From contig PDPP01000017.1 of the NCBI GenBank assembly GCA_002747515.1, positions 4,392 to 68,391 on the forward strand: a stretch of DNA of 64,000 nucleotides, given 5' to 3'. Source of the stretch: Candidatus Moraniibacteriota bacterium (lineage in GTDB: Bacteria > Patescibacteriota > Minisyncoccia > Moranbacterales > GCA-2747515). Positions 3,021 through 44,621 of this stretch are shown here, one piece after another. The position numbers and the translations under genes are program-made. The first letter of the stretch is position 1. Every line of letters starts with the position of its first letter. The notes beneath the pieces are model-generated. The model was not told the DNA's origin, did not search any database, and saw only the letters and a list, made by a program, of their open reading frames with translations.

Positions 3021-3240
3021 GCGTATGAAAAAAAATATAAGTCAATACATACTTTACGTGAAAAAAAACTTGCGTAGCAGTATAAAAAATATATGGAATC
3101 ATGATAGAGTTTCTTCTTTTATAAAAAAAAGAAAAAAGCAGATGTACGTCATATATAAAAAATGTGCGAATCAATGTGTATGTAAAAAACAGAAATTATG
3201 TGATGTTGTGAATAAAAAAATACGTGACACGTATCAAGGT

Positions 3241-8940: not shown

Positions 8941-9021
8941 AAAATACTGTATGATAATATCTATGTATTTAATAAGGAATAATTTATAAATTTCTGATAA
9001 AAGAAAAACAAAAAAATTTTT

Positions 9022-18762: not shown

Positions 18763-18776
18763 TGGTTGGTTTTTTT

Positions 18777-19070
18777 CTGGATTTCCGCTTTTGTGGGAAT
18801 GATGAGGGTATGGTGGGAATTGTTGGATTCCCGCCTCCGCGGGAATGACAGGGGGTATGGGAATGACAAGGGGGACGCGCGGGGGTGACATAGACTATAG
18901 TGGAAACCTCTGGATTCCCGCCTTCGCGGGAATGACACAGTGCGATATAGTGGTAGTTTCTGGATTCCCGCCTTCGCGGGAATGACAGGGGGGTATGGGA
19001 ATGACAAAAGGGGGCGCGGGAATGACAAGGGAGGTGCGGGGTGACGTATGAGATGTGGGGTTTGTAATGT
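18777..19070 (+). repeat. Repeat island A: clustered copies of the 28-nt palindrome CTGGATTCCCGCC(T/C)(T/C)CGCGGGAATGACA with GGGAATGACA(R)GGG sub-repeats
   Basis: Core copies lie at 18824, 18910 and 18960, and a degenerate copy at 18777. The island is GC-rich within an AT-rich genome and the units are 50-95 bp. Confidence 0.8.
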
Positions 19071-19098
19071 TATGTTGTTGAATATATAATGATCTTTT

Positions 19099-19674
19099 AT
19101 GGATATAATGAGAAAACAGAAAAATACGGTTGATTTGCGTGGTGGTGTGTTACGACAAGAGCAGAGGCATCGACATGGCACGCGGCGATCTTTTGATACG
19201 CAAAAGCATGCAAATGCGATATCTCATAGGAAATATATGGATGCGCAATCATATACAGTATCACAGAAGCAACAACAAGAAAGAGTGAAAAAAAATGGGC
19301 AGAATACCAAAAAATTTCAATTATTGCAAAAGAAACATTCTGTTTTATATAATAGTATTGGTGGAGTTGTGTTTTTTTGTGTGATTATAGGTCTTTTTGT
19401 TTTTACGGAGTTGACGAGTATTGATATTTTCTTTTGGACATTTTTTCTGTCGCTTTTTTATTGGCATATTGATAGTCGTGTTTCAATTGGTGGAGCTTTG
19501 GCGTGTCTTTTGGCAATTCCAGTTTTACTTATTGCAGAAAATAACTTTGGATATATCAATGGTGGTGTGTGGGCAGAAGAAGTTGCGGTGTGGGCATATT
19601 TTTTTCTCGTGATTGGTGTGGTGAAACAAATCTATGAATATATATGGGAGTCAAAAAGACTGAAGTCATCATGA
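19099..19674 (+). CDS. Hypothetical protein with a basic N-terminus and C-terminal TM helices, embedded between repeat islands
   Basis: ORF of 191 aa with a hydrophobic C-terminal half and no recognisable motif. The true start may be internal. It could also be a non-genic ORF. Confidence 0.25.
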   Translation: MDIMRKQKNTVDLRGGVLRQEQRHRHGTRRSFDTQKHANAISHRKYMDAQSYTVSQKQQQERVKKNGQNTKKFQLLQKKHSVLYNSIGGVVFFCVIIGLFVFTELTSIDIFFWTFFLSLFYWHIDSRVSIGGALACLLAIPVLLIAENNFGYINGGVWAEEVAVWAYFFLVIGVVKQIYEYIWESKRLKSS

Positions 19675-19688
19675 TGTTTTTTGTGGTT

Positions 19689-19895
19689 CTCTGGATTCCC
19701 GCCTTCGCGGGAATGACAAAGGGGAGCGCGGGAATGACAGGGGGGACGCGCGGGGGTGACATAGGCTATAGTGGAAAACTCTGGATTCCCGCCTTCGCGG
19801 GAATGACAAAGGGGAGCGTGGGAACGACAAAAGAGACAAAGATGATGTTTTTTATAATTATGTTATCCCCGCGAAGGCGGGGATCCAGGAATTTT
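19689..19895 (+). repeat. Repeat island B: two forward palindrome copies (19691, 19781) followed by a ~50-bp module containing the inverted-orientation core (ATCCCCGCGAAGGCGGGGATCCAGG, 19866-19890)
   Basis: Identical in layout to island A units (gacgcgcgggggtgacatagNctatagtggaaa). The island ends 7 nt before the GIY-YIG start codon. Confidence 0.8.
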
Positions 19896-19897
19896 TT

Positions 19898-20182
19898 ATG
19901 AAACAGTATTATGTATATATTTTAGCTAGTCAGAAAAATGGTACTTTGTATATTGGAGTGACGAGTAATTTGCAAAAAAGAGTTTTTGAACATAAAGAAA
20001 AGTTGGTTGCAGGGTTTACAGAAAAGTATAATGTAGATAAATTAGTGTATTTTGAACAAACAGGTGATGTGCAATCTGCACTTTTGAGAGAGAAGCAATT
20101 GAAAAAATGGAATAGGGATTGGAAATTGAAATTAATTGAAGAAAAAAATCCGCAATGGAATGATTTGTATGATTTTTTGTGA
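19898..20182 (+). CDS. Small GIY-YIG domain nuclease (UPF0213/YhbQ-like stand-alone GIY-YIG protein)
   Basis: YVYILASQKNGTLYIGVTSNLQKRVFEHK matches the GIY-YIG catalytic motif. The 94-aa size is typical of stand-alone GIY-YIG proteins. Confidence 0.7.
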   Translation: MKQYYVYILASQKNGTLYIGVTSNLQKRVFEHKEKLVAGFTEKYNVDKLVYFEQTGDVQSALLREKQLKKWNRDWKLKLIEEKNPQWNDLYDFL

Positions 20183-20184
20183 TT

Positions 20185-20512
20185 TTCTGGATTCCCGCAT
20201 GCGCGGGAATGACGAAGTGGACGTGGGAATGACAAGGAGTATAGTGAAAGTCTCTGGATTCCCGCATGCGCGGGAATGACAGGAAGGGTGCGGGAATGAC
20301 ATGGGAGACGTGGGAATAATATGATGTGCGTGAATGAGACGGGGTGTGTGCATGAATGACATGGATTATAGTGAAAGTCTCTGGATTCCCGCCTGCGCGG
20401 GAATGACAGGATGGGTGCGGGAATGACAGGGGAGGGTACGGGAATGACAAGGGGATGTAAGGATGATGTTTTTTATAATTGTGTCATCCCCGCGAAGGCG
20501 GGGATCCAGGGG
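20185..20512 (+). repeat. Repeat island C: three forward palindrome copies (20187, 20254, 20381; loop variant CATG/CTG) plus a terminal ~50-bp module with the inverted core (20486-20510)
   Basis: The island begins 3 nt after the GIY-YIG stop codon. Its terminal module ggatgatgttttttataattgtgtcatccccgcgaaggcggggatccagg is near-identical to 19843-19890 (upstream island B). Confidence 0.8.
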
Positions 20513-22290: not shown

Positions 22291-23010
22291 ATGATGAAGA
22301 AAAGAAAATATAAATGGCTAAAAATACTTGTAATTATCGCAAGTATTGGTGTGATTACTTTTGTGGTTTATAACAAAATGCCACAACATAGCAAAGAAGC
22401 TATCATTAACCGATTAACAAGAGGTATTATTGAAACAAAGCAACCAGTAACAGTTGAGAAAAAAGTTGTTGATGCTGTTAACACTAACAGATCACGAACA
22501 GTGAGATTTTACATGCCTTCAAAAGGCGATGTGCAAAATGATAAGCAAAAATTTTTAGCAAAGGGCATAATGTATTCAAAAAATGGCATACTCGTAACAG
22601 CAAGAGGGTATTTCCAAGAAGGAATTTCGTATGAAATTGCGATCCCAGGACAAAAAGAACATGTTGTAGCAGTGCCATTTAATGTTGGAAAAAATTTTGT
22701 TTTTTTTGATATTAAACAAAACATGCCCTTTGTTGCAGAATTAAGTAATTCACCAGTTTCTGTTGGTGATACGGTTGTAGCAATTGGAGGCGAGGAAGAA
22801 GATCAGATTGCAACAGGCGAAGTACGTTTGGTTGAAAGAACTGATCATGACTCTTTTATTGTGACAACCATCCCTTCGCATCAAATGACAATTGGATCAC
22901 CACTTATGAATGAAAAGAGAGAAGTGGTTGGACTATATTTTAAAAAGAGCGTTGATAATAAAGCGGTTTTTGTTTCTGTGCGAGGTGTTGACAAAATAAT
23001 AAATAAATAG
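22291..23010 (+). CDS. Membrane-anchored hypothetical protein, possibly a degenerate trypsin-like (HtrA-type) protease domain
   Basis: N-terminal TM helix. TIGSPLMNEKREVVGLY resembles the GNSGGPL...G(V/I)(N/G) region of S1C proteases. The match is weak. Confidence 0.3.
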   Translation: MMKKRKYKWLKILVIIASIGVITFVVYNKMPQHSKEAIINRLTRGIIETKQPVTVEKKVVDAVNTNRSRTVRFYMPSKGDVQNDKQKFLAKGIMYSKNGILVTARGYFQEGISYEIAIPGQKEHVVAVPFNVGKNFVFFDIKQNMPFVAELSNSPVSVGDTVVAIGGEEEDQIATGEVRLVERTDHDSFIVTTIPSHQMTIGSPLMNEKREVVGLYFKKSVDNKAVFVSVRGVDKIINK

Positions 23011-23102
23011 ATAATTATAGTATATTGTGCGACACTATGTAGTGTGGTATAGTAAATACATATTTAATAAAATAATTATATAAAATATAAAATATAAAAT
23101 AT

Positions 23103-24057: not shown

Positions 24058-24280
24058 GTGAAAGTTGCATCATTCTCTGACAAAAGTTATCACTTTTAAA
24101 TTCGTTGTGCGACAGAAGGATATGAGAAGAATATTATTGAATTTTTTCAATAATTATTAGAACTCATCGAGTGTAAATGCTGTCATGAAGTCTGCTTTTT
24201 GATAAAAGTGGAGAATTAATGTGGCAACACGAAATATTCGTCCTTAAATTATTTTTTGAGGATTTTTTATTTTTAAAACA
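24058..24280 (+). promoter_or_regulatory. Degenerate duplicate of the ileS T-box leader (paralogous to 33088-33310), probably a non-functional relic
   Basis: About 80% identical over ~230 nt to the ileS leader, including the GA/K-turn region aggatatgagaagaa, the ATC specifier context (aactcATCg), and the terminator hairpin plus T-run. The T-box consensus is damaged: AATTAATGTGGCAACACG versus the canonical AATTAAGGTGGTACCACG. Confidence 0.55.
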
Positions 24281-24305
24281 ATAGGTATAATATTTAAAAA
24301 AGTAG

Positions 24306-24367
24306 AAATAAAAAAGGAAGATTATACACTTACAATACTGTATAAAACTGACATAAAATAAAAAAAT
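24306..24367 (+). pseudogene. 3'-terminal relic of a paralog of the CE4 deacetylase gene (encodes ...KEDYTLTILYKTDIK*)
   Basis: A 39-nt exact match (cacttacaatactgtataaaactgacataaaataaaaaa) to 8906-8944, the last codons and stop of the deacetylase gene. The upstream codons are also similar (KEEYPLT vs KEDYTLT). Confidence 0.6.
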
Positions 24368-24513
24368 GTGTATGTAATTGCACAGAAATAGAGAATGTTG
24401 TACAATATATATCGGAGGGGTGAGTCTCAAAAAAACAAGCGTTGGACAAGGTCGTAGGCGCTAAAGAGAATCAATCTATCCGCGTAAATCAGTTAAGCAG
24501 GTACTTACACGTT

Positions 24514-24834
24514 ATGGAAAGAGATGCACAATTCGTCGAAGAAGTAGTGAAGATGCTTGTCGACAATCCTGAGGACGTGAAAGTTGATCGTAAAGTTGAC
24601 GAGATGGGCGTACTGATCACTTTGGATGTAAATCCAGAGGATATGGGTATGGTTATCGGTCGCGAAGGTTCTACTGCAAAAGCGCTTCGCACATTACTTC
24701 GTGTAGTGGGTGCGCGTAATAATGCACGTGTGAACTTAAAGATCAATGAGCCAGAGGGTTCTGAACGCCCAGAGAAAAAAGAAGAGGGTGATCAGAAAAC
24801 TCTTGATGAAGTTGTCGGGGATATTCAGATCTAA
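24514..24834 (+). CDS. khpA: KH-domain RNA-binding protein (KhpA/YlqC-like) with an acidic/charged C-terminal extension
   Basis: MERDAQFVEEVVKMLVDNPEDVKVD...EDMGMVIGREGSTAKALRTLL matches the KhpA family pattern (LVDNPEDV; GxxIGxxG KH motif). The ORF is open from 24442, but family alignment favours start at 24514. Confidence 0.6.
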   Translation: MERDAQFVEEVVKMLVDNPEDVKVDRKVDEMGVLITLDVNPEDMGMVIGREGSTAKALRTLLRVVGARNNARVNLKINEPEGSERPEKKEEGDQKTLDEVVGDIQI

Positions 24835-33089: not shown

Positions 33090-33310
33090 GTGAAAAATGA
33101 TAAAATCCTCTGACAGTGAATATCATCATTGAATTTGTGTGTAGACACAAAAGGATATGAGAAGAACGTTGTTGAAACAATTATTAGAACTCATCGGGTA
33201 AGCCCGTAAACGCTGTAATGAAGTCCGCTTTTTTGTAAGGTGGAGAATTAAGGTGGTACCACGAAATATTCGTCCTTAAATAATTTTTAAGGATTTTTTA
33301 TTTTTATAAA
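33090..33310 (+). promoter_or_regulatory. T-box riboswitch leader, Ile-specific, controlling ileS
   Basis: Stem I GA motif (aggatatgagaagaa). ATC specifier at 33191-33193. T-box sequence AATTAAGGTGGTACCACG at about 33246-33263. Terminator hairpin tccttaaa...ttaagga followed by a T-run ending about 33310, just 9 nt before the ileS ATG. Confidence 0.75.
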
Positions 33311-33318
33311 ACAATAAT

Positions 33319-36258
33319 ATGGCATTTAAAAAAGTAGAGTCAAATCAAAAATTACCAGAAATGGAAAAAGAAATTATCAATGTGTGGAACAAAAATCAAA
33401 CATTTCAAAAAACATTAGAAAATCGTAAAGGTGCAAAGGAATATACATTTTATGATGGTCCTCCATTTGCAACTGGTTTACCGCATTATGGTCATATCGT
33501 GGCAAGTGTATTGAAAGATGTGGTGCCACGGTATTGGACGATGCGTGGTTACTATGTGGAGCGTAAATGGGGGTGGGATTGTCACGGATTGCCAATTGAA
33601 AATATTGTGGAAAAAGAATTGGGCTCAAAAAAGAAAAAAGATATCGAAAAGATGGGCGTGGCGGTATTTAATGAAAAATGTCGTGAAAAGGTTTTGGTTT
33701 ATGTATCTGAATGGGAAAAAACCATAGAACGACTCGGACGTTGGGCAGATATGGAAAATGCATATCGTACGATGGACAGGGATTATATGGAGAGTGTGTG
33801 GTGGGTATTCAAAGAGTTGTGGGATAGGAAGTTAATCTATGAAGATTATCGCTCAATGCACATTTGTCCGCGGTGCGAAACGACATTATCACAACAAGAA
33901 GTTTCAGAAGAGTATCAAAATATTAAAGATTTGTCAGTAATGGCAAAATTTGCACTTGTTGATGAGTTGAATACGTATGTACTTGCATGGACAACAACAC
34001 CATGGACATTGCCGGGCAATGTTGCACTTGCTGTAGGAAATGAAATTACATATGTGAAAGTGGAGAAAAATGAAGAAGGTGATTTTGTGCAATATATTTG
34101 TGCTAAAGAACTTGTTGAAAATATTTTTAAAGATCAAGAATATAAAATTGTTGAGGAATTTTTGGGGTCAGAATTTGTGGGCAAAAAATACCAACCGCTT
34201 TTTGATGTGTACAAAAAAGATGAAAATGTAGAAAATCGGGAAAATGGATGGAAAATTTATGCAGCGGATTTTGTAACAACTGATGAAGGAACTGGTGTGG
34301 TGCATATCGCACCAGCATTTGGTGAAGATGATATGAATCTCGGTCGTGAAAATCATTTACCATTTGTACAGCACGTTGCGATGGATGGAAGTTTTAAAAA
34401 GGAATTGGGTGATTTGGCTGGAAAAAATGTGAAGCCGATTGACAATCATCAAGAAACAGATGTGGAGATTATTAAATATCTCGCAAAAAATGGAACATTA
34501 TTTCACAAGGAAAAATATGAGCATAGTTATCCGCACTGTTGGCGTTGTGATACACCACTGATTAATTACGCAACAACCTCGTGGTTTGTGTCTGTGACAA
34601 AAATCAAAAAACGTATGTTGGAATTGGCAAAAGAGATTAATTGGTCGCCAGAACATATCAAAGAGGGGCGTTTTGGAAAATGGTTAGAGGGCGCACGGGA
34701 CTGGTCAATTTCTCGTCAACGGTTTTGGGCGAGTGTGATGCCGATCTGGGTGTGTGATACGTGTGACAAGAAAATTGTTTTTGGTAGTGCAAAAGAATTA
34801 GAGGATGCGAGCGGGCAACAAATTGATGATCTGCATAAACATATTGTAGATGAAGTGACATTTGGATGCGATGCATGTGAGGGAACAATGAAACGTGTGC
34901 CAGATGTTTTAGATACGTGGTTTGACAGTGGTTCGATGCCATATGCAGGGAAACACTATCCGTTTGAAAATGAGGAGCAATTTGAGCAAAATTTTCCAGC
35001 AGATTTTATCGCAGAGGGTGTAGATCAAACACGTGCATGGTTTTATTATCAACATGTTATTGCAACAGGTATTAAGGATAATCATGCATTTAAAAACGTG
35101 GTTGTTAATGGAATTGTGTTGGCGGAGGATGGTAAGAAGATGAGTAAAAAATTACAAAATTATCCAGATCCAGGTGACATGTTTGAAAAGTATGGTGCGG
35201 ATGCGGTACGTTTTTACTTGATGCAGTCTCCAGTCGTTGCGGCAGAAAACATGAATTTCATTGAGCAAGAGTTGGGTGAGGTTTCGCGGGGGATGTTGCG
35301 TCGGTTGTGGAACAGTTATTCATTTTTTGTGTTGTATGCGTTGGTGGATAAGTGGTCGCCAAAAACTGTCAATCACCAGCCGTCGGTTACTCGTTCTAAC
35401 ATTCTTGACCGATGGATTCTGTCAGAGTTACATGTGTTAATTGGGAATTTCAATACTCATATGGAGGCGTATGAACTGCACAAAGCGGCACGACTATTGC
35501 CACAATTTATCGATGATCTGTCAAATTGGTACATTCGTCGTTCGCGGCGGCGGTTTTGGAAAAGTGAAGATGACGCGGACAAAAACGAGGCATATCAGAC
35601 ACTTTATGAGGTATTGGTGACGATATCAAAAGTGATGGCACCGTTCACGCCGTTTATCACCGAAGAAATTTTTAGAAACTTGACTGACGAAGAATCGGTA
35701 CATCTTACTGATTTTCCCGAAGCAAATGCAAAGCTGATTGACGAGGAACTCAATCAAAAAATGGCAAACACGAGAAAAGCGATTGAAATAGGCTTGTCAC
35801 TGCGTGCACAAAACAGTCTCAAAGTGCGCCAACCACTCGCAATGCTAGAAATTACTGGTGCAGATATTGACACGGAACTTCTGGAACTTATCACAGATGA
35901 GGTGAACGTCAAAGCAGTGAACATCGTGGACAAAATCAATTCTAGTTTCAAAAGCAAAGCAGACGGCACACTGACGGTCGGACTGGATATCGCACTGACG
36001 GATGAATTGAAAAAAGAAGGGCAGATGCGCGAACTCATTCGCCACATCCAGCAAGCACGCAAAAAGGCGGGGCTAGCTATTGACAATCGAATAAAACTAT
36101 GCTATACTGGTAATTCTGAAATTATTAATTCTTTTACAACTGAAATTGCCAAAGAAGTTTTGGCAACAGAAATTGTTCAAGGAGAGCCTGATGCGGAAGC
36201 GTTTTCAGAGTCCATTGCGGTAGGCGATGAAATGCTAACGATTTGGATTGTGAAATAA
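33319..36258 (+). CDS. ileS: Isoleucyl-tRNA synthetase
   Basis: HIGH motif PHYGH, KMSKS motif KMSKKL, zinc-binding Cys pairs (CPRCE; CWRCD; CDTCD). The protein is 979 aa. Confidence 0.9.
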   Translation: MAFKKVESNQKLPEMEKEIINVWNKNQTFQKTLENRKGAKEYTFYDGPPFATGLPHYGHIVASVLKDVVPRYWTMRGYYVERKWGWDCHGLPIENIVEKELGSKKKKDIEKMGVAVFNEKCREKVLVYVSEWEKTIERLGRWADMENAYRTMDRDYMESVWWVFKELWDRKLIYEDYRSMHICPRCETTLSQQEVSEEYQNIKDLSVMAKFALVDELNTYVLAWTTTPWTLPGNVALAVGNEITYVKVEKNEEGDFVQYICAKELVENIFKDQEYKIVEEFLGSEFVGKKYQPLFDVYKKDENVENRENGWKIYAADFVTTDEGTGVVHIAPAFGEDDMNLGRENHLPFVQHVAMDGSFKKELGDLAGKNVKPIDNHQETDVEIIKYLAKNGTLFHKEKYEHSYPHCWRCDTPLINYATTSWFVSVTKIKKRMLELAKEINWSPEHIKEGRFGKWLEGARDWSISRQRFWASVMPIWVCDTCDKKIVFGSAKELEDASGQQIDDLHKHIVDEVTFGCDACEGTMKRVPDVLDTWFDSGSMPYAGKHYPFENEEQFEQNFPADFIAEGVDQTRAWFYYQHVIATGIKDNHAFKNVVVNGIVLAEDGKKMSKKLQNYPDPGDMFEKYGADAVRFYLMQSPVVAAENMNFIEQELGEVSRGMLRRLWNSYSFFVLYALVDKWSPKTVNHQPSVTRSNILDRWILSELHVLIGNFNTHMEAYELHKAARLLPQFIDDLSNWYIRRSRRRFWKSEDDADKNEAYQTLYEVLVTISKVMAPFTPFITEEIFRNLTDEESVHLTDFPEANAKLIDEELNQKMANTRKAIEIGLSLRAQNSLKVRQPLAMLEITGADIDTELLELITDEVNVKAVNIVDKINSSFKSKADGTLTVGLDIALTDELKKEGQMRELIRHIQQARKKAGLAIDNRIKLCYTGNSEIINSFTTEIAKEVLATEIVQGEPDAEAFSESIAVGDEMLTIWIVK
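36080..36108 (+). promoter_or_regulatory. Putative sigma70-type promoter embedded in the 3' end of ileS (TTGACA-N17-TATACT)
   Basis: ttgaca at 36080-36085, a 17-nt spacer, then tatact at 36103-36108. The same segment is repeated at 37042 and 38410 with TTGACA-N17-TATGAT. Confidence 0.5.
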
Positions 36259-36309
36259 TAGGAAATTATAGACAGACAGTAAGAAAAACAGTTAATCAAG
36301 GAGAAAATC

Positions 36310-36969
36310 ATGGAAATTACAGGAAAGCTGAACAAGCTGGATAGTCTTACTCGAGGAGAGGTGGATTCAGTTTTGATTAAAATTGGACATGATGCAGGGA
36401 TGGATGTCTTGGAAGCAATCAGAGCGTATCTTCGCGGTGATCTCATCATTCGGCCCAAGGGGCTATTTCTCAAAAATGACAATGGTCACCATGTATTTAA
36501 AATTTTTGGAGAGAATTATCTTGGCAAGGAGGAAGCAGATCGCATAGATGCAGGTATTCTTCAGATGAATATTGAAGCTTATCAAATTCTGATAAATGAC
36601 GATTACAACAAAAACCATCTTCTTGAAGAAGATGAGGAATACACGATTGTGTTAGTTCCTAGTGATGAAATCACCGAAGGAAGAACAGTGGAAGAATATG
36701 GATTATCTTTTAATTATCAAAAAATGCGTGCCGAAGCCGTTCTTCGTATGCAAGAAATTGTTACTCAAAAACAAATGAAAAAGATGGGTTTTTCTGATAT
36801 TATGGGAGTTCATATGCCAATCAGCACTCTTCGTGGTGATTTCTATTCTCTCGGATTGAGTCGTTGTAATAGTGTCGGTGATGAACACTGTCTCCTTGGT
36901 GCTTATAGTAGGACGTATGATAGCCAGTGGAATAATTTAGCATTTGCATTCTTTGCTCCTGGAGATTAA
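36310..36969 (+). CDS. Hypothetical soluble protein with no recognisable domain, GC-richer than its surroundings
   Basis: ORF of 219 aa with RBS aaggag 8 nt upstream. It follows the ileS stop by 51 nt. Composition is visibly more G+C-rich than flanking genes. Confidence 0.45.
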   Translation: MEITGKLNKLDSLTRGEVDSVLIKIGHDAGMDVLEAIRAYLRGDLIIRPKGLFLKNDNGHHVFKIFGENYLGKEEADRIDAGILQMNIEAYQILINDDYNKNHLLEEDEEYTIVLVPSDEITEGRTVEEYGLSFNYQKMRAEAVLRMQEIVTQKQMKKMGFSDIMGVHMPISTLRGDFYSLGLSRCNSVGDEHCLLGAYSRTYDSQWNNLAFAFFAPGD

Positions 36970-36984
36970 CTTCTGTTCCTTAAG

Positions 36985-37040
36985 TCTTTGCCCTTTGTTC
37001 TTTTTTCACAAAACTGTGAGAGAAGTGCAAAGGGTTTTTT
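36985..37040 (+). terminator. Probable terminator hairpin after the 219-aa gene
   Basis: ccctttg ... caaaggg stem followed by ttttttatt. The loop is long, so strength is uncertain. Confidence 0.35.
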
Positions 37041-37224
37041 ATTTGACAAAAATCACAAAAATTACTATGATGACCAGTCAGATATGAATAGTACCTTTAC
37101 AACTGAAATTGCCAAGGAAGTTTTGGCAACAGAAATAATCAATGGTGAGCCAGATACAAAAGTGTTTTCTCAGTCCATAACACTGGGCGAAGAAAAGCTG
37201 ACGATTTGGATTGTGAAATAATAG
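37035..37224 (+). repeat. Copy 2 of the ileS 3'-end segment (promoter TTGACA-N17-TATGAT at 37042-37070, plus diverged ileS tail codons ending TAATAG)
   Basis: The segment aligns to 36075-36261 at nucleotide and protein level (NSTFTTEIAKEVLATEIINGEPDTKVFSQSITLGEEKLTIWIVK vs ileS NSFTTEIAKEVLATEIVQGEPDAEAFSESIAVGDEMLTIWIVK). ORF-track entry 36988..37221 is this relic, not an independent gene. Confidence 0.8.
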
Positions 37225-37244
37225 GAAAAAATCGGAGGTGTGAA

Positions 37245-37544
37245 ATGAAAAATGAGACAGTAATAATGAGTGTTATTTGTCTTGGTGCTGTGATTTTGCG
37301 CAACACAATTAATCTCGGTGATTTTGTTGTAAATGCAATTTTACGCGATTATTTGTTGGCAGTTATCATCATGTCAGCATTATTTGTGACATGTGAGACG
37401 ATTTTTAGGAAAGAACTTGTTACTAATGCAGTATGGTTACAAGTAAAAGAGGCAATAAGCATGTCTATCTATCTGTTAAGTAGCGGCACTTTGCTTCTTA
37501 TCTGTTTGTGTGCGATACGAATACACACAGGTCCTTTGCTGTGA
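37245..37544 (+). CDS. Small multi-TM membrane protein, member of a local paralog family
   Basis: Starts at ggaggtgtgaaATG (37245). The 99-aa product has 3 TM helices and no known motif. Confidence 0.45.
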   Translation: MKNETVIMSVICLGAVILRNTINLGDFVVNAILRDYLLAVIIMSALFVTCETIFRKELVTNAVWLQVKEAISMSIYLLSSGTLLLICLCAIRIHTGPLL

Positions 37545-37565
37545 ATTATGAAATGGAGGTGTGAA

Positions 37566-37946
37566 ATGGTTCGTCTGAACAAGTTTGATATAGTTCTTAG
37601 TATCGTTTTCTATGGGATTTGTTTCGGTATGTATTTCACTAATTTTGGCGTATCTACAAAAATAGCATTTTTTGTTTTTGTTGCGTTGCTGGTTCTGTAT
37701 GAGTTTACTAATCCAATTGTACATCTGCCAATGCTTACAGTTAAAGCGACTGAAAGAATAAAAATCGGTTCAGTGGTCGTTTTGATTGTTTCGGAAATTT
37801 CCACTTTTGCGTTAATGTTTCTTGATCTCTGTAATTTAGGATACGTGATGCATGTAAGTAATGTGTTGCTTGGATTGGCTTTCGTTCTCATTGTTGTTTT
37901 CATAGTTTCGTGGTTGCAACGGCGGAAAGTCGTAGCATGCCAGTAA
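37566..37946 (+). CDS. Small multi-TM membrane protein, paralog of 38807..39076 plus 39089..39280
   Basis: Starts at ggaggtgtgaaATG (37566). The N-terminal half is similar to the 38807 ORF and the C-terminal half (VSNVLLGLAFVLIVVFIVSWLQRRKVVACQ) to the 39089 ORF. Confidence 0.45.
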   Translation: MVRLNKFDIVLSIVFYGICFGMYFTNFGVSTKIAFFVFVALLVLYEFTNPIVHLPMLTVKATERIKIGSVVVLIVSEISTFALMFLDLCNLGYVMHVSNVLLGLAFVLIVVFIVSWLQRRKVVACQ

Positions 37947-38051
37947 TTACTAGCGAACAAGCAATGGTGGGATTATGTGTATTATCTGGTAGTTTTGCTT
38001 ATGGTGGCAAGTGTTGTTTTGAGATTTTTTGGTTTGTGAGGGAGGTGTAAA

Positions 38052-38354
38052 ATGAATGAAGAAAATATTGAAGGCTGGTTTATTCCATACATCATCCTGA
38101 TTTTTAGTGGGTTAGCTATTATTCTGGGAGGTTGTTTGCATCCAGATTTGTGGTTGTTTAGCAAGATTTTAACAGTTTTGGCTGGATTGCTGATTGTGGT
38201 ACTTTCTTCTGTTAGAGTGTTCGCTAAAAAAAGAGATGTCACACTTGCATGGTTGGACCAAAGAAGTCATTTTGTGAAACGGTTCATGCTGATTTTAGCT
38301 TCAGTTATTCTTGCAATCGAAATTGGAAAAGAGATGTTGGTATATTTTCTATGA
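38052..38354 (+). CDS. Small multi-TM membrane protein (local paralog family)
   Basis: Starts at gggaggtgtaaaATG. The 100-aa product has 3 TM helices. Confidence 0.4.
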   Translation: MNEENIEGWFIPYIILIFSGLAIILGGCLHPDLWLFSKILTVLAGLLIVVLSSVRVFAKKRDVTLAWLDQRSHFVKRFMLILASVILAIEIGKEMLVYFL

Positions 38355-38374
38355 AGTTGCATATGAAGTATATA

Positions 38375-38408
38375 TCCGGTTGTATTCACATATATAACCG
38401 GTTTTTTA
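38375..38408 (+). terminator. Rho-independent terminator immediately upstream of the copy-3 promoter
   Basis: ccggttgtattcacatatataaccgg followed by tttttt. Confidence 0.55.
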
Positions 38409-38590
38409 TTTGACAAAAATCACAAAAATTACTATGATGACCAGTCAGATGTGAATAGTACCTTTACAACTGAAATTGCCAAGGAAGTTTTGGCAACGGA
38501 TATCATCAACAGTGAGCCAGATACGGAAGCGTTTTCTCAGTCCATTACACTGGATGATGAAATGCTCACTATGTGGATTGTGAAACAATA
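38400..38590 (+). repeat. Copy 3 of the ileS 3'-end segment (promoter TTGACA-N17-TATGAT at 38410-38438, plus diverged ileS tail ending ...MWIVKQ*)
   Basis: Aligns to copy 2 and to ileS 36075-36261. There is no in-frame ATG, so the tail is a non-expressed relic. Confidence 0.8.
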
Positions 38591-38607
38591 GGAAATGGAG
38601 ACTTAAA

Positions 38608-38805
38608 ATGGAATACAGTGCATACATACAATATATCGGATGGATTTTAATGGCATTTTGGCTGTTTCTTTCTTCTGCTGATGAGGCTTATTGTGAGTGG
38701 AAAGGAATTGTTTTGAGTAAAAAGAGAAAAATGTTTTGGAAAGGAATGTTTTTGCTTTCAGTCATAATAATTTTGGGTGGACATTTTTTGATAACGGAGG
38801 TGTAG
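38608..38805 (+). CDS. Small membrane protein (2 TM)
   Basis: RBS ggagacttaaaATG. The product is 65 aa and hydrophobic. Confidence 0.35.
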   Translation: MEYSAYIQYIGWILMAFWLFLSSADEAYCEWKGIVLSKKRKMFWKGMFLLSVIIILGGHFLITEV

Positions 38806-38806
38806 A

Positions 38807-39076
38807 ATGAATTTTTCGAAAATCAGTTTTATGGTGCCTTACATAATCTTGTTGTGTGGTTATTGCGGTGTACTCGTTTCAAATTTCAGTGCATTTACTA
38901 AGAGTTGTTTCTCTGTTTATGTTGTAGCACTGCTCTTGTATGAGTGGTTTGACCCAGAAAAAACCTACAAAAAAATTTCACCAGAAATGGAATCTTGGTT
39001 ACGGATAATTCTTTGTTATGGAGTTATTATTCTAACAGTTGTCACTTTTGGGTCAGTAATTTATGATTCTCTATAA
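38807..39076 (+). CDS. Small membrane protein, paralog of the N-terminal half of 37566..37946
   Basis: Starts at cggaggtgtagaATG. It shares ...NF(G/S)...TK..F.V.V.ALL.YE(F/W).(N/D)P with 37566..37946. Confidence 0.4.
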   Translation: MNFSKISFMVPYIILLCGYCGVLVSNFSAFTKSCFSVYVVALLLYEWFDPEKTYKKISPEMESWLRIILCYGVIILTVVTFGSVIYDSL

Positions 39077-39088
39077 TGTAGGAGGTGT

Positions 39089-39280
39089 GTGATGCGTGTA
39101 AGTGATGTATTACTCGGGTTAGCTTGCATCCTTTGTGTTATTTTTGCAGCACCGATTTGGCTACAGCAGAAAGTTGTAGCATGTCAGCAATTAGTGAACA
39201 ATCGATGGTGGGGGTGTTTGTATCTCTCAGTGATTGGATTGATTGTTGTGAGTGGTATGTTGAAGTGTTATGGATTATGA
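39089..39280 (+). CDS. Small membrane protein, paralog of the C-terminal half of 37566..37946
   Basis: Starts at taggaggtgtgtgATG. MRVSDVLLGLACILCVIFAAPIWLQQKVVACQ parallels the tail of 37566..37946. The reading frame continues past the point where the paralog has a stop. Confidence 0.4.
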   Translation: MMRVSDVLLGLACILCVIFAAPIWLQQKVVACQQLVNNRWWGCLYLSVIGLIVVSGMLKCYGL

Positions 39281-39725
39281 ATGGATGTGTGTGATGAGTT
39301 AGGATTTGGCTTTTGGACTTTGGTATCTAGGCGATGTTTTTTTCTCAGAACAAAATTTTCTGAGTAAAGTTTCAATAGCATTCTCTATTGAGACACCTTT
39401 GCTAATCCATGTTGTTTTTTTCGTGGAAATGGAAAGAATCTTTTCCATTTGCAAAAACTGTTGTACCGATTTTATTTGGCATGTTTGACATGGGGCGATA
39501 TGTGTCGCTAGTATTGTGCAGTTTGTAGGAGGCTATGTTTATGACTGGTGTAGAAATTTTTATTGCGTGGGGTATTTTTTTTGTATTGATTGGAGTAGCA
39601 GAATTGTGTTGCGGATATCTTTTTTAGAGAAAAAGTAAGGTCTTGTGCATGTAACCCAGTGTTCATAAAAGAATACTGGGTTTTTCTTTTGTTGTGTAAT
39701 TATGGTATGATATGGAGCATTAATA

Positions 39726-40469
39726 GTGTATTGTGTCATTTTTGTGAAACAAAATTATCATGCGATTACGCTTGACAAGCGAGACATAGGTGAAACAGAC
39801 CGTCTGTATACATTTTATACGTTAGAGACTGGTTTGATGCGTGTTTTAGCACGATCAATTCGTAAGATGAATGCAAAACTTCCTATGCAGGTAGAGGATT
39901 TTGTATTGTCTCATATTACTGTAGCAAAAAACTATGGTCGTGGGACACTTGCCGGAGCGGTTGCTGAGGAATATTTTGAGGAATTGCGTATAAATTATGA
40001 TGCATTGATGTGTGTGGATATTGTGCGTAATGTGCTTTTGACAATAATTGAAGAGAATGATAGTGATGAAGATATTTTTGCACTTTTAGTAGAATATTTG
40101 CAAAAAATTAACGCACTTGCAACACAGAAAAAAGAAAAGAATATTTCACAAATGCAGTGGATTACAAATGCATTCCTTATGAATTTTTTTGCATTACAAG
40201 GGTATACGTTTGATGTGTCAAAGTGCTGTGTGTGTAAAAATTCGCTTGAAAAAAAACGTAATGGGTTTAGTGCAAATAGGGGTGGTGTGATTTGTGAAAA
40301 ATGTTTTTCTGGTAATTGGTATTGTTATGTAGATCCAGATACTGTCAAAGCATTGCGTGTAATTCAGACAAATAGATTTTCAACACTGACAAAGGTAATG
40401 ATTCATTCGATTGTGCATAAACAAATGAAAATGGTTGTAGGAGACATTGAGAGATGGGTAATGCGATAG
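39726..40469 (+). CDS. recO: DNA repair protein RecO
   Basis: N-terminal OB-fold region (AITLDKRDIGETDRLYTFYT), C-terminal zinc finger (CCVCKNS...VICEKC). GTG start. Confidence 0.6.
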   Translation: MYCVIFVKQNYHAITLDKRDIGETDRLYTFYTLETGLMRVLARSIRKMNAKLPMQVEDFVLSHITVAKNYGRGTLAGAVAEEYFEELRINYDALMCVDIVRNVLLTIIEENDSDEDIFALLVEYLQKINALATQKKEKNISQMQWITNAFLMNFFALQGYTFDVSKCCVCKNSLEKKRNGFSANRGGVICEKCFSGNWYCYVDPDTVKALRVIQTNRFSTLTKVMIHSIVHKQMKMVVGDIERWVMR

Positions 40470-40519
40470 TTCGTGGTATAATACTATTAACTTTTCAATT
40501 ACGATTAAATATAAATACT

Positions 40520-42388
40520 ATGTCTCTTGATAAATTAAAAAAAGATATTCAAGGTCAAGATTCAGAAGTCCTTGATCGAGAGCATGATAAAACGGTATAC
40601 AACGAATGGGAATCAAAAGAAGTGCAAAAAAAAGAGTCAGCATGGAAACGGTTTATGGGTGGAATGCAAGAAACACGATCACGAGCAATTGTTGTTGGTG
40701 GGATTGTTATTGGCGTGATTGTTTTTTTGCTTATTGCATCAGCATCTTTTATGTATTATCAGGGTGGTTTTTTTGCAAATGATCGTGTGACTTTTTCAAT
40801 GGAAGCGCCGCAGACAGCAAAAAGTAATGATATTACAGAGATTTTGTTTTATTATGAAAATGATAATCGTGCAAAACTCATGCAATCAGAGATTGTTGTG
40901 CGATTTGGGGAATATTTTGTGCCAGAGGAAAATCAAGAAAACTTCACACGCGTTAGTGCAAGTCAAGGTGTAATTACCATTGATCAAATTGAAGGAGGTA
41001 AAAAAGGTAGTGTTTCACTTGCGGGACATTTTGTGGGACCGAAAGAATCCTCGGCAGATATCTCTAGTACATTGCGTTATGTGCCAGAGGCCTCATCGAC
41101 ACGATATATTATAGATGCACGATCTTCTACAGTTATAACATCTTCAGCGATTACTGTGGATATTGAATCTCCCCAGGAGGTTGTTAGCGGAAATTTATTG
41201 GATGTAGTTGTGAAGGTACAAAATACGAGTGCTGATCGATTAGATGATATAAAAATGACTATTGATGTGCCAAAAGAATTTTCTGTACACAGCATTGAGC
41301 CGCGTGCGAGTCATGGTTTTATGTGGCTCATTGGAGAAATGGCGCCACATGAAGAAAAAATTTATCATATACGTGGTGGCCTCGATGCAGCAATTGGTAG
41401 TGTGCAAATATTTGACGTGGAGGTTGGTGTAGGTGAAAGTGGTGATGGCTATATGCGTTATGCAAATGCAAAATATACACCACGTATTGTTAGTTCACCA
41501 ATTCTTGTGCATCAAGAGATTGATACAAGAACTCATGGTGGTGGTGTTGCGTATGCAGGGGAATCTGTAAGGTATAGTATTAAATTTACAAATGATAGCG
41601 ATATTGCGCTACGTGATGCAATCGTCACTTTGAATTTAGAAGGTGAAGCAATTGATTTTGAATCATTGACATTAGGTAAACAAGGTGATTATGATCAGGA
41701 AAATCGACGAATTATATGGAAAGCAGCAGATGTGCCGGCATTGCGTATCTTGAAGCCAAAGGATTCTGGAGAAGTGACATTTTCTTTTAATATTAAAGAA
41801 CAGTTGCCTGTCAATACGGAAAATGATCATCATTTTTCAATTACTTCTGTTGCTGCAATTGATAGTGAGGATATTCCATCGCAGTTGCGAGAAAATAAGA
41901 CGGTATTGAGTAATGTGCGCACACTGCCAGTTGGTGCAAAAGTCATTTTCAGTGCAAGTTCAGAATATGACTCAGGACAAGAACAGCCAAAGGTTGGAGA
42001 AAAATCTGTATACAAAATTACGATGAAAATCGATAGTATTAATAATGATATTTCCAATGCAGTTGTTTCTATTCCACTGCCAACACATACGACTTTTGAA
42101 GGTGGAGATTCTAAAGAGATTTCATATAAAGAACGTACAAATGACATTACATGGACTGTTGGTGATATAGCGCATGGCACAGGGGTGACGTCTGATTCAA
42201 AGACAGTGTCATTTAGAGTTGGTATCGTTCCGAGTGTTGATCAAATTGATAAATCACCAGTTCTTTTAAAGAAACAATTTCTTTCAGCAGTGGATTTATT
42301 TACAGAACTTGAAATTAATGGGGAGGCTCATGAAATATATTTAAACAGTGATGGGCGTTTTGGTGAAGTCGGTCTAGTGCAACCATAA
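40520..42388 (+). CDS. Membrane-anchored large extracytoplasmic hypothetical protein
   Basis: ATG 40520 (MSLDKLKK) is preferred over the ORF-track start 40454, which overlaps recO. There is a single TM helix near residue 55, followed by a ~550-aa beta-rich Ser/Thr/Val-rich domain. No identifiable motif. Confidence 0.4.
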   Translation: MSLDKLKKDIQGQDSEVLDREHDKTVYNEWESKEVQKKESAWKRFMGGMQETRSRAIVVGGIVIGVIVFLLIASASFMYYQGGFFANDRVTFSMEAPQTAKSNDITEILFYYENDNRAKLMQSEIVVRFGEYFVPEENQENFTRVSASQGVITIDQIEGGKKGSVSLAGHFVGPKESSADISSTLRYVPEASSTRYIIDARSSTVITSSAITVDIESPQEVVSGNLLDVVVKVQNTSADRLDDIKMTIDVPKEFSVHSIEPRASHGFMWLIGEMAPHEEKIYHIRGGLDAAIGSVQIFDVEVGVGESGDGYMRYANAKYTPRIVSSPILVHQEIDTRTHGGGVAYAGESVRYSIKFTNDSDIALRDAIVTLNLEGEAIDFESLTLGKQGDYDQENRRIIWKAADVPALRILKPKDSGEVTFSFNIKEQLPVNTENDHHFSITSVAAIDSEDIPSQLRENKTVLSNVRTLPVGAKVIFSASSEYDSGQEQPKVGEKSVYKITMKIDSINNDISNAVVSIPLPTHTTFEGGDSKEISYKERTNDITWTVGDIAHGTGVTSDSKTVSFRVGIVPSVDQIDKSPVLLKKQFLSAVDLFTELEINGEAHEIYLNSDGRFGEVGLVQP

Positions 42389-42404
42389 AAAAGAATTTTG
42401 ATGT

Positions 42405-44621
42405 ATGCGTATATTTTTTGCAATAATGTTATTATTGCCATTTGTGGCAACAGCTCAAGAGTCTTCCACGATACAATTATTTATGGAGAGGGCAGAGAGT
42501 GGGGATGTGGTTTTTGATATTCCTGGTGGAAGTCAAGAATCTTTTACTATTTTTGTGAAAAACGATACAGACAAGAAAAGCGAAATAAGAATATTAATGA
42601 GTGGTGAGGGGGGCAGTCTTGTAGAAAACACGCGTTTTTTTGATGAAATGACAGATCCAAAGATACAGACAATTCTAGAAGAAAACAAAAATGATATCAT
42701 TACACTTTGTAGTAAAAATGACCTTCAGGATGAAATAAAAAAATGGTGTTTAGGAATAAAACAACTTTCTTTTGTAGCTGATCCTGGACAAGAAAAACAG
42801 ATTTTGGTGCGCATTGCGATTGATTCTGCACAAACTGCACAAGAGGCAAATCTTGTTGTTGAGCAGAAAAATGCTCTTGGAGAATATGAGCGCGTGCAGG
42901 AGCAAAAAATACAGTATCATCCACCAGAGAAAGATGTTGCTTTGCTTCAGGTGTCTAATTTTACACTTGATCAAAAATTCGGTCCATTAGATGTGCAATC
43001 GTGGTTTTCGGCAGGAATGAAGGAATTGTATGGTGCGCATTATCTTGTAGAAAATAGAGGAATAAGGGATGTGAAATATACATCTGTTGCAAAAGTATAC
43101 TCACATTTCATTGGAGATGAAGTGTATTATGAGGAAACAGAAGTGATTTCACGAGGAGAAAAAAAAGAAACTACGCTCGAATTACGTATGCCACGATTTG
43201 GAAAAGTGCAGATTACTGGTAGTGTTACATATACTGATCAAAATGATGTTTTACAAGAGATACAAAGTGAACCAATCGAAATTTTTGTGTGGCCAGCAAC
43301 TTTGTTTTTATTGATAATGCTCGGCGGTTGTTTTTGTCTCATAAGTGTTTTATTATATAAGTATCTAAAAAAAAATATGTTTGGATTCAAAAAGAAAAAC
43401 GAAAAAAAAGATGAAAGCGGTTTCGGTGGAACATACACTGTGCAAGATGCTGATAATATTATTTCTATTGCGCAACATTACAATATTTCATGGAAAGAAT
43501 TAGCTAAACAAAATGGTATCGAACCACCCTATATTTTGATTTCTGGTGAAACGATTAAAGTACCGGGAGAAGCTGACGAGTCTATATCTCAATCTCAGAA
43601 AAAACAAGCAAAAGAGAAAAAAAATGTGGCAGATCAGTGGGGGGGAAAGTTTAAAGAAAAACAAGAAAACATTGTGCAATCGACTACAGAAGATTCGCAC
43701 GATAATCAGATGCTTATTGAAAACAAAGAACAGGAGTTATCAGCGCCTAAGCAAAATGCGATTGCAGAGGATATGACAGTGGCATCTCAAAAATCTGTAA
43801 ATACTTCACATGAGAAAAAAGAAGTGGAAAAAGAACAAAAGAAAAAGCGAAAAGTAACATTTGCTTCACCGAAGAATATGCTCACAAAACCGTCATCTGA
43901 GCCAACAACGCGTGCGATTGATATTGAATGGATGCGTGATGATGAGATTGCATATATGGAAGAAATGGAGGTGCAGGAAAAAAAGACAAACAGAAAATTT
44001 ATTGCTGTGATTGTGATAAGTGTTTTGATTGTTGGTATAGTGATTTGGTATGGTGTCGTATGGTTTATGGAGAAAAACAAAGGCGAAGAAAGTGTTTCAG
44101 TTGACACATTGATTACAGAGCAATCTGCGGAGAAAGAAAAAAAGAAAGAGGAAATGAATGCTTCACAAGTTGAAGCACCAAAAGTTGAGTCTGATGTATC
44201 TGATGATCATGAAAAGAAAGAGGAGAATAATTTAGAGAATTTGCAAGATAATAATCCTGATAAAGAAGAGGTTACTGCTAAAGAATCTGATATAAAAGAA
44301 ACTGAAGAAGGACAGGATAAAGAAAGTGTTAGTGAAAATAACAAAGAAGTGTCTGTGCAAGTCCTTAATGCTGGCGCACCAACTGGCGCAGCAGGTGCAG
44401 TTTCTAGTGAAATCAAAAAAGCTGGATTTACAACTAAAGCAGCGCAAAATGCACAAAATGATTATGAAAATGTTGTGATTTATTATAAAAAGAATTTAGA
44501 AGATGTTGCGAAAAAGATTGGTGTTGAAATTGATGAGAAATATGGTGTACAAAAAGTAGAAGAGTCAGATGATGTAGCAAAAAAATATGGTGTGGATATT
44601 GTTGTTGTGTTAGGTACGTAA
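42405..44621 (+). CDS. Secreted/membrane protein with a LysM domain, a Lys/Glu-rich linker and a C-terminal LytR_C-like domain
   Basis: Signal peptide MRIFFAIMLLLPFVATAQ. LysM (YTVQDADNIISIAQHYNISWKELAKQNGIE...GETIKVP). Internal TM helices. C-terminal VSVQVLNAGAPTGAAGAVSSEIKKAGF...VVIYY...VAKKIG resembles LytR_C. Confidence 0.5.
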   Translation: MRIFFAIMLLLPFVATAQESSTIQLFMERAESGDVVFDIPGGSQESFTIFVKNDTDKKSEIRILMSGEGGSLVENTRFFDEMTDPKIQTILEENKNDIITLCSKNDLQDEIKKWCLGIKQLSFVADPGQEKQILVRIAIDSAQTAQEANLVVEQKNALGEYERVQEQKIQYHPPEKDVALLQVSNFTLDQKFGPLDVQSWFSAGMKELYGAHYLVENRGIRDVKYTSVAKVYSHFIGDEVYYEETEVISRGEKKETTLELRMPRFGKVQITGSVTYTDQNDVLQEIQSEPIEIFVWPATLFLLIMLGGCFCLISVLLYKYLKKNMFGFKKKNEKKDESGFGGTYTVQDADNIISIAQHYNISWKELAKQNGIEPPYILISGETIKVPGEADESISQSQKKQAKEKKNVADQWGGKFKEKQENIVQSTTEDSHDNQMLIENKEQELSAPKQNAIAEDMTVASQKSVNTSHEKKEVEKEQKKKRKVTFASPKNMLTKPSSEPTTRAIDIEWMRDDEIAYMEEMEVQEKKTNRKFIAVIVISVLIVGIVIWYGVVWFMEKNKGEESVSVDTLITEQSAEKEKKKEEMNASQVEAPKVESDVSDDHEKKEENNLENLQDNNPDKEEVTAKESDIKETEEGQDKESVSENNKEVSVQVLNAGAPTGAAGAVSSEIKKAGFTTKAAQNAQNDYENVVIYYKKNLEDVAKKIGVEIDEKYGVQKVEESDDVAKKYGVDIVVVLGT

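Follow-up and report, generated by a model that had tools for sequence, protein, structure and literature searches.

Displaced copies of the ileS 3' end as probable promoter modules in a membrane-protein gene array of Candidatus Moraniibacteriota

The isoleucyl-tRNA synthetase (IleRS) gene ileS lies near the middle of a stretch of 64,000 nucleotides (nt; the window) from a Candidatus Moraniibacteriota metagenome-assembled genome (MAG; assembly GCA_002747515.1, contig PDPP01000017.1, locus tags CR972_) whose gene order agrees with that of Moranbacteria; the overall GC (guanine plus cytosine) content of the window is 35%. The 3' end of this gene recurs twice downstream, each time ahead of small membrane-protein genes. 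We conclude that the extra copies, called relics below, are probably displaced or duplicated ileS 3' ends that have been kept as promoter-plus-leader modules and as homology anchors; they would have persisted because a predicted promoter and transcribed leader for the genes downstream lie within the final ~190 nt of ileS. An initial annotation, made from the letters of the window alone, held that the arrangement matches no recognised system. That view has to be given up, since the locus is assembled from known processes: an embedded promoter, import by intragenic recombination, displaced gene ends and a hypervariable slot. Four points had escaped it, namely that the promoter is old and widespread, that there has been horizontal import, that ileS is chimeric, and that the position after ileS is variable in general.

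Alignment confirms that the ileS tail and its promoter recur. A 196-nt segment is present three times in direct orientation, once as the true ileS 3' end (copy 1) and twice further on (copies 2 and 3; Table 1), and no further copies were found in the window. Copy 2 shares 91% identity with copy 3, and both share 73% with the ileS tail over the 196 nt and ~80% over the 3' 130-150 nt. The promoter sequences are as first described (TTGACA-17-TATACT in ileS, TTGACA-17-TATGAT in both extra copies), as are the terminal hexamers (TAATAG, TAATAG and CAATAG in copies 1, 2 and 3) and the terminator hairpin before each extra copy. The T-runs of these terminators, T1 and T2, run into the sequence just upstream of the following -35 box. 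On both strands of the window there are eight sites scoring at least 11/12, against 4.1 +/- 1.5 in shuffles, and three of the eight are the repeat promoters. The proposed layout of portable homology, promoter and variable cassette holds as well.

The borders of the relics coincide with those of a predicted transcription unit. In three relics out of three (copies 2 and 3, and one in the metagenome contig L084, described below) the 5' edge reads GGnTTTTT(T)ATTTGAC right after a terminator. The relics extend from ~10 nt upstream of the -35 box to the Shine-Dalgarno (SD)/ATG region, that is the ribosome-binding site (RBS), of the first cassette gene, and 17-20 nt separate the ends of copies 2 and 3 from the next start codon. 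They thus combine direct orientation, a start at the promoter and an end at the RBS of the next gene, and are complete units of predicted promoter plus leader. A translated relic peptide was also considered. The frame does remain open in copies 2 and 3, and an ATG or GTG lies close to the predicted start, but the L084 relic has two in-frame stops, and the idea is disfavoured.

Is the promoter a peculiarity of this locus? A promoter-like site scoring at least 10/12 occurs in the final 260 nt of ileS at 44 of 155 loci, compared with a background rate of 0.032 per 260 nt in the body of the gene. Most of these tail sites lie 176-197 nt before the stop codon, and ~10 are perfect TTGACA-17-TATAAT. 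The ileS tail has a conserved D-x-R-[IVL] motif whose Asp codon overlaps the -35 box; this codon is GAC in 43 of 60 distinct tails, compared with 298 of 1057 Asp codons (28%) in the remainder of these genes (odds ratio 6.4, p=1.7e-11). Because of this GAC bias, the promoter appears to be selected on top of the protein code. A predicted promoter of sigma-70 type in ileS is an old and widespread feature of this Patescibacteria group; it would lie within the ileS coding sequence of many Patescibacteria, conserved and under selection in the choice of codons.

There is a precedent in E. coli, where promoters inside ileS serve the downstream genes of the ileS-lspA operon. Here too a predicted promoter in the ileS coding sequence reads into downstream membrane-protein genes, and it would decouple them from the regulation of ileS, in this case by a T-box-like leader. 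Unlike the E. coli case, the promoter-bearing fragment appears to have been copied from the gene and put to separate use behind terminators, and the downstream genes are not lspA. Elsewhere in the window, the open reading frames (ORFs) 3025-5910 and 22291-23010 have near-consensus promoters (11/12) in their last ~20-150 nt, at 5765-5793 and 22988-23015 respectively; such promoter-bearing gene ends seem characteristic of this compact genome.

The ileS gene itself is a mosaic. Residues 1-700 of IleRS share 76-77% amino acid (aa) identity with the Moranbacteria-type L001, L086 and L087 and 48-49% with L082 and L085, which belong to the four metagenome contigs (L082 to L085) that match the ileS C-terminus most closely. 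For residues 731-979 the relation is reversed (52-57% to L001, L086 and L087, 82-84% to L082 and L085). At the nt level the switch is sharp and falls at ~35500-35510 (~35507): upstream the gene resembles L087 and L001, downstream it is near-identical to L082, L084 and L085. The 3' body that follows has 82-95% nt identity to L082-L085 versus ~50-70% to the native-type L087 and L001. Composition changes in the same place, 35500-36060 having a GC content of 44.6% and a GC skew of 0.06 and the 5' part of ileS 38.8% and 0.33; donor-clade ileS genes have 46-48% GC and the 3' parts of ileS in native relatives 31-38%. Synteny is broken too. In the true relatives L043 and L001, recO lies 180-350 nt after ileS (ileS-recO-p644-p738-p899 in L043, ileS-recO-p644 in L001); in the window the interval is 3.46 kb. 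Three families of cassette genes, B, C and D, were found only in L082, L083 and L085, and the 219-aa gene (p219) only in L084. Conflict between the gene halves, compositional shift and broken synteny together mark a horizontal island, and the slot with the last ~750 nt of ileS was imported from a different, higher-GC Patescibacteria lineage, that of L082-L085. The transfer would have run from the donor clade to the window lineage, because L082 is 68% identical to its own relatives in the N-part and 55% in the C-part, which suggests vertical descent. Recombination between lineages has here made a chimera of an essential aminoacyl-tRNA synthetase gene, with the crossover inside the anticodon-binding domain.

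A smaller irregularity concerns the promoter patch of the functional tail (36076-36120). This encodes IDNRIKLCYTG, nearer to Moranbacteria and to the unrelated contig L102 (VDNRI..YTG/YAG) than to the donor-clade VDDRIKVYYD; over the 45 nt for DNRIKLCYTG, identity is 69% to L086 versus 60% to L082 by manual count, and L102 has the same motif. This short patch may be a further mosaic patch or a remnant of the native tail. Neither a fourth relic nor a native Moranbacteria-type tail was found in 39281-39725, before recO.

The initial annotation had pointed to the ileS-recO interval of related genomes for differences in cassette content and number. Relatives do differ: recO directly follows ileS in L043 and L001, the cassettes vary among L082-L085, and the repeated tail is absent from all 80 species-representative GTDB relatives (up to 67% aa identity). 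The closest parallel is L084, in which a second, decaying copy of the tail (2128-2337, two in-frame stops) comes after a homologue of the 219-aa gene that has a frameshift and after a homologue of terminator T1; positions 36999-37247 of the window are 78% identical to 2115-2363 of L084, upstream terminator included. In L082, L083 and L085, small membrane-protein genes of families B, C and D come directly after ileS, with the same stop-to-RBS junction as after the relics. The ileS genes of L082-L085 are ~90-97% identical at the nt level, yet the cassettes downstream differ in each, and identity drops in the last ~150 nt of ileS (for example to 67-80% between L082 and L084). The tail has two variants: EI(V/A)QG in the functional tails of the window and L084, and DIING in all relics and in the tails of L082, L083 and L085.

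L102 adds a case from elsewhere. Its segment 10776-11746 holds, in order, the ileS tail promoter, a transmembrane (TM) gene, a terminator, a 52-nt relic, a paralogous TM gene and a terminator. This relic spans the promoter region only, from -35 to about +25, with the -10 box improved to TATATT, and is an independent recurrence of the putative promoter relic in another lineage. More broadly, ileS in these genomes is followed by zero to five small ORFs, many with TM segments, and these often by a recO-sized ORF of 237-250 aa; for 160 of the 277 small ORFs in the slot, no relative could be detected in the rest of the set. The slot that follows ileS is thus variable in general and has a predicted promoter inside the ileS coding sequence; often lying before recO, it is a hot spot of fast-evolving small membrane proteins in these reduced genomes. 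One stray hairpin is of note: on a distant contig, L137 16240-16300 is ~80% identical over 61 nt to T1 (36987-37047); an unrelated 225-aa ORF, ~5 kb beyond ileS, precedes it.

The repeat array is not an assembly artefact. In an independent Logan assembly of run SRR6011893, two contigs match 36006-37062 and 38533-43375 with 100% identity, and the L084 contig comes from another metagenome. The stretch 37063-38532 lies outside both Logan contigs, and contiguity there is that of the MAG assembly alone. The genes after copy 3 (cassette B; those after copy 2 are cassette A), with their donor-type tail, are physically joined to the native recO in the independent assembly, and because of this linkage the case for import stands even if the path through 37063-38532 is wrong.

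How might such an array arise? In the explanation that we favour, a module consisting of an ileS tail allele, the 219-aa gene and a terminator would have come to lie before the resident tail. This would have stranded the older tail as the stand-alone promoter and leader of a membrane-protein operon, and a second unit of relic, operon and terminator would then have been stacked behind it. Stacking and cassette replacement could proceed by RecA-type homologous recombination or by homology-facilitated illegitimate recombination, with the conserved tail core TTTACAACTGAAATTGCCAAGGAAGTTTTGGCAAC as anchor. The outcome would be three independently transcribed units with terminators between them.

The relics bear traces of exchange. 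Copies 2 and 3 are mosaic with respect to each other (99% identity in the 5' half, 83% in the 3' half), as is the L084 relic with respect to the true tail of L082 (72%, then 95%), and the mosaicism is centred on the most conserved 35 nt. The ratio of non-synonymous to synonymous differences (pN/pS) between copies 2 and 3 is 0.27 over 17 changes, a synonymous bias that is expected if they diverged while both were functional tails; for the L084 relic against L082 and L085 it is at least 1. Three variants, clustered at -40, -28 and -23, are exclusive to the functional tail and copy 3, and one to the functional tail and copy 2. These shared variants, four sites in all, hint at gene conversion.

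A simpler history would be plain tandem duplication in situ of the ileS tail plus operon, followed by ordinary divergence and with neither exchange nor an anchor role. The common orientation, the paralogous genes in the same order and the spacing in L102 (536 nt) agree with it. Uniform divergence, however, cannot produce relics that are 91% identical (99% in the 5' half) beside cassettes whose paralogous parts have 27-64% aa identity and no detectable DNA similarity; the low pN/pS between the relics and the differing cassette content of near-identical sister strains also speak against it. The model, which we hold to be very improbable, could still be saved by gene conversion or by relics under strong purifying selection. 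A single duplication in situ is less likely than repeated recombination anchored in ileS and its relics, on account of the sister-contig cassettes, the contrast in identity between relics and cassettes, the mosaicism, the pN/pS and the shared variants. At the other extreme stands programmed or selected cassette switching, with the relics as silent donors or handles that recombine with the expressed ileS end or exchange the membrane-protein operons, in the manner of pilS/pilE or of orphan modules of contact-dependent inhibition (CDI) and Rhs systems. The initial annotation had offered a recombinational cassette locus of this kind as the first of three readings, and as regards layout it was right: a conserved handle abuts divergent cassettes, the relics are mosaic, sister contigs differ at strain level, and the functional tail shares variants with each relic. 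There was no sign of a programmed switch and no toxin/immunity signature: the gene encodes a synthetase with a housekeeping role, what recurs is the conserved DUF5915 end and not a variable tip, and neither a toxin domain nor a known immunity family was found. The shared variants number only four and ordinary gene conversion explains the patches, and the L084 relic is interrupted by stops; such switching is unlikely.

The second of the three readings, tandem site-specific integrative elements that target the ileS 3' end and each regenerate it with attachment (att)-like repeats, was correct in that incoming DNA supplied a surrogate end, leaving ileS chimeric from ~35507. Direct repeats do flank each block, and the arrangement recurs in L084. 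The reading fails on the machinery: no integrase or recombinase was found, and none of the ORFs in 36260-39725, the longest of 219 aa, matches Pfam, PHROG, PADLOC or NCBIfam. Moreover, the repeats are 190 nt long at 73-91% identity with no short identical att core, their borders are a -35 box and an RBS, and the left import junction falls in a conserved block 750 nt within ileS, as is usual for homologous recombination; we therefore regard such elements as quite unlikely. Carriage by a phage or plasmid was rejected, the tail core pattern being absent from IMG/VR and PHROG giving no match. The last reading makes the repeated ~150 nt a structured cis-regulatory leader RNA reused for membrane-protein operons. 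A hairpin UUGCCAAG...CUUGGCAA is indeed found in eight of eight sequences, L084 ileS having one double compensatory change in it, and a long 3' hairpin has z-scores of -4.1 in the L084 relic and -4.5 in L082; for the folds of the window copies, z is only -1.9 to -2.6. However, the RNAalifold covariation term is -0.04, with double changes at 3 of 41 pairs, and among 114 distinct ileS tails third-codon-position pairing at three pairs is no commoner than in shuffles (p 0.18-0.51). The repeat copies have no match in Rfam, L102 keeps the promoter only, and the tail hairpin would be conserved because of its I-A-K-E-V-L-A codons. We give this reading hardly any credence.

Several points weigh against displaced tails kept as modules and anchors. 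The order and number of cassettes depend on assembly across a ~100-nt stretch in which copies 2 and 3 differ by one mismatch, and the pN/pS argument comes down to 17 substitutions only. The promoters are inferred from consensus and comparison only, and the donor clade comprises just four close contigs, to which protein-database searches added no further relatives. The right boundary of the import was not located within 39281-39725. The window relics are recognisable over all 190 nt and the L102 relic over only 52 nt, so the former may be either young or under some further constraint. Finally, duplication in situ with allele replacement cannot be told from serial insertion here.

Some known systems resemble the locus in part. 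Staphylococcal cassette chromosome (SCC) elements at rlmH are islands that bring a surrogate gene end and accrete in tandem. The ssrA islands of Dehalococcoides, as outlined in PMC3146451, are islands of the tRNA/transfer-messenger RNA type at the 3' end of a conserved gene. As in these islands, the incoming DNA supplied the new end, the earlier ends would now lie downstream in the form of direct repeats, and the units stand in tandem; unlike them, the locus has no integrase and no short exact att core, its junction lies well inside the gene, the repeat consists of promoter and leader, and the units are only ~1.0-1.4 kb long. Orphan modules of the cdiA-CT/cdiI and rhs type are likewise arrays of upstream-gene 3' fragments with small genes, a homology handle and horizontal spread, but here the fragments derive from an aminoacyl-tRNA synthetase gene and are conserved instead of being variable toxin tips, and there is neither a pretoxin motif nor a recognised immunity family. 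Integron arrays also stack small promoter-dependent cassettes beside a fixed platform; in contrast to these, no IntI or other tyrosine recombinase, attI or attC was found here, and every unit has its own predicted promoter and terminator.

Where the likeness is one of mechanism, homology-facilitated illegitimate recombination comes closest; it was reportedly described in transformable bacteria by de Vries and Wackernagel in 2002 and by Prudhomme et al. in 2002. Foreign DNA enters by one conserved anchor (here the ileS block at 35507 and the tail core) and leaves mosaics and partial duplications at the other end. This is a mechanism and not a feature class, and it is not known to have been demonstrated in Patescibacteria. 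Switching at capsule loci is a further instance of flank-anchored replacement of hypervariable loci. A literature search found no description of ileS-tail repeats.

A more general proposal, which is tempting but doubtful, is that the 3' end of an essential gene together with its promoter forms a recombinase-free platform, a universal handle for the capture, stacking and exchange of membrane-protein operons across lineages. Such a platform would need host homologous recombination only, for example after natural transformation, and if real would be a functional analogue of integrons and orphan-module arrays that varies the envelope or the host/phage interface of episymbionts. For annotation, the favoured explanation suggests that ileS-tail fragments found after ileS be read as promoter relics and not as pseudogenes or mis-assemblies. 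The slot would also be a tractable place in which to seek factors of the envelope, host contact or phage exclusion, as well as gene flow driven by homologous recombination, in uncultivated episymbionts.

The cargo gives few clues to function. Copy 2 heads genes of 99, 126 and 100 aa and copy 3 genes of 65, 89 and 62 aa, all hydrophobic, and a GGAGGT RBS precedes all cassette genes but tm65, which has a weaker GGAG. Two or three small multi-TM genes had been noted after each extra copy, and there are three in each case; the mutual paralogy claimed for them applies only to families B and C, tm99, tm65 and tm100 being without a counterpart in the other set. In family B, residues 1-94 of tm126 are 27% identical to tm89 and also resemble L082 tm96 and L083 tm90; in family C, residues 95-126 of tm126 and the in-frame continuation past its TAA are 52-64% identical to tm62. 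Cassette A thus has a family-B and a family-C gene fused in frame (37566-38041), the intervening SD being degraded. The tm126 gene stops at a TAA where cassette B reads CAA, and the family-C frame runs on to 38041; the early stop is either decay or a truncated variant.

Database searches were largely negative. The ORFs that directly follow ileS in L082 and L084 likewise had no match; the scan covered no more of the L082-L085 contigs. Assignment to a defence system was rejected, PADLOC having given no match. For the 219-aa protein there was no Pfam match across 40 members of the family, a sequence search of the PDB gave nothing usable, and Foldseek against the PDB found no match. A 41% homologue, P0005, sits after an ftsW/rodA gene, which indicates that the family is not tied to ileS. 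In protein databases the imported part of ileS had no match above 56% identity, the relic ORF matched only itself and a Logan fragment, and tm126 only itself; looking up the exact sequences of ileS, tm100 and the relic ORF returned nothing on record. Our guess is that the cargo consists of envelope or host/phage-interface proteins under diversifying pressure.

Table 1. Features in and around the ileS-recO interval (positions in the window unless residues are indicated)
Feature	Position	Strand	Evidence or remark
T-box-like leader upstream of ileS	33101..33280	+	Rfam RF00230, 53.5 bits, E 1.8e-9; gathering score 93 not reached
ileS, 979 aa, chimeric	33319..36258	+	TIGR00392, 943 bits; mosaic identity profile
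IleRS domains (Pfam)	residues: tRNA-synt_1 19-645; Anticodon_1 697-840; DUF5915 802-978
Recombination breakpoint in ileS, at conserved IDDLSNWYIRRSRRRFW block, anticodon-binding domain	35500..35510	+
Imported ileS 3' body	35507..36060	+	nt identity profile, GC, GC skew
Repeat copy 1, functional ileS tail; divergent 'EIVQG' allele linked to the 219-aa gene	36070..36265	+
Predicted promoter P1, TTGACA-17-TATACT, codons I-D-N-R-I-K-L-C-Y-T	36080..36108	+
219-aa gene, cytoplasmic	36310..36969	+
Intrinsic terminator T1, hairpin 36990-37035 plus T-run	36990..37041	+	-27.4 kcal/mol, z -6.7
Repeat copy 2, probable displaced ileS tail (relic); predicted promoter P2 at 37043-37071, ~165-nt leader	37033..37228	+
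tm99, small membrane protein, weak likeness to L084 tm104	37245..37544	+	consensus SD GGAGGT 7 nt upstream
tm126, family B fused to N-terminus of family C	37566..37946	+
tm100, family D, like L082 tm107 and L083 tm91	38052..38354	+
Intrinsic terminator T2, hairpin 38376-38401 plus T-run	38376..38407	+
Repeat copy 3, probable second ileS-tail relic; predicted promoter P3 at 38410-38438, plus leader	38400..38595	+
tm65, small membrane protein	38608..38805	+
tm89, family B	38807..39076	+
tm62, family C, like L085 tm63	39092..39280	+
Right end of insert	39281..39725	+	promoter-like site 39485-39514; 30-aa TM ORF 39535-39627; terminator 39653-39682
recO, native ileS neighbour in true relatives	39726..40469	+	Pfam RecO_N/RecO_C

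Other repeated segments were seen elsewhere in the window. A degenerate copy of the T-box leader with the first ~8 ileS codons (~80% identical) lies at 24096-24305, upstream of a KH-domain gene (24442-24834), and is a second case of an ileS boundary copied to another place. Beside it, the 63 nt at 24312-24374 are 89% identical to 8891-8953, the 3' end of ORF 7315-8940 and the intergenic sequence after it; because this copy adjoins the T-box relic, 24150-24420 would be a patchwork of copied gene boundaries. The ORFs 345-3020 and 3025-5910 share DNA segments of 77-84% identity at an offset of 2914 nt and are evidently tandem paralogues. Short GC-rich palindromic repeats with the core GGATTCCCGCnnnnGCGGGAATGACA are present in at least ~10 copies at 11715-12510 and 18775-20510, in both orientations and with irregular spacing; they look like repetitive extragenic palindromic (REP) elements or miniature inverted-repeat transposable elements (MITEs) rather than an array of clustered regularly interspaced short palindromic repeats (CRISPR).

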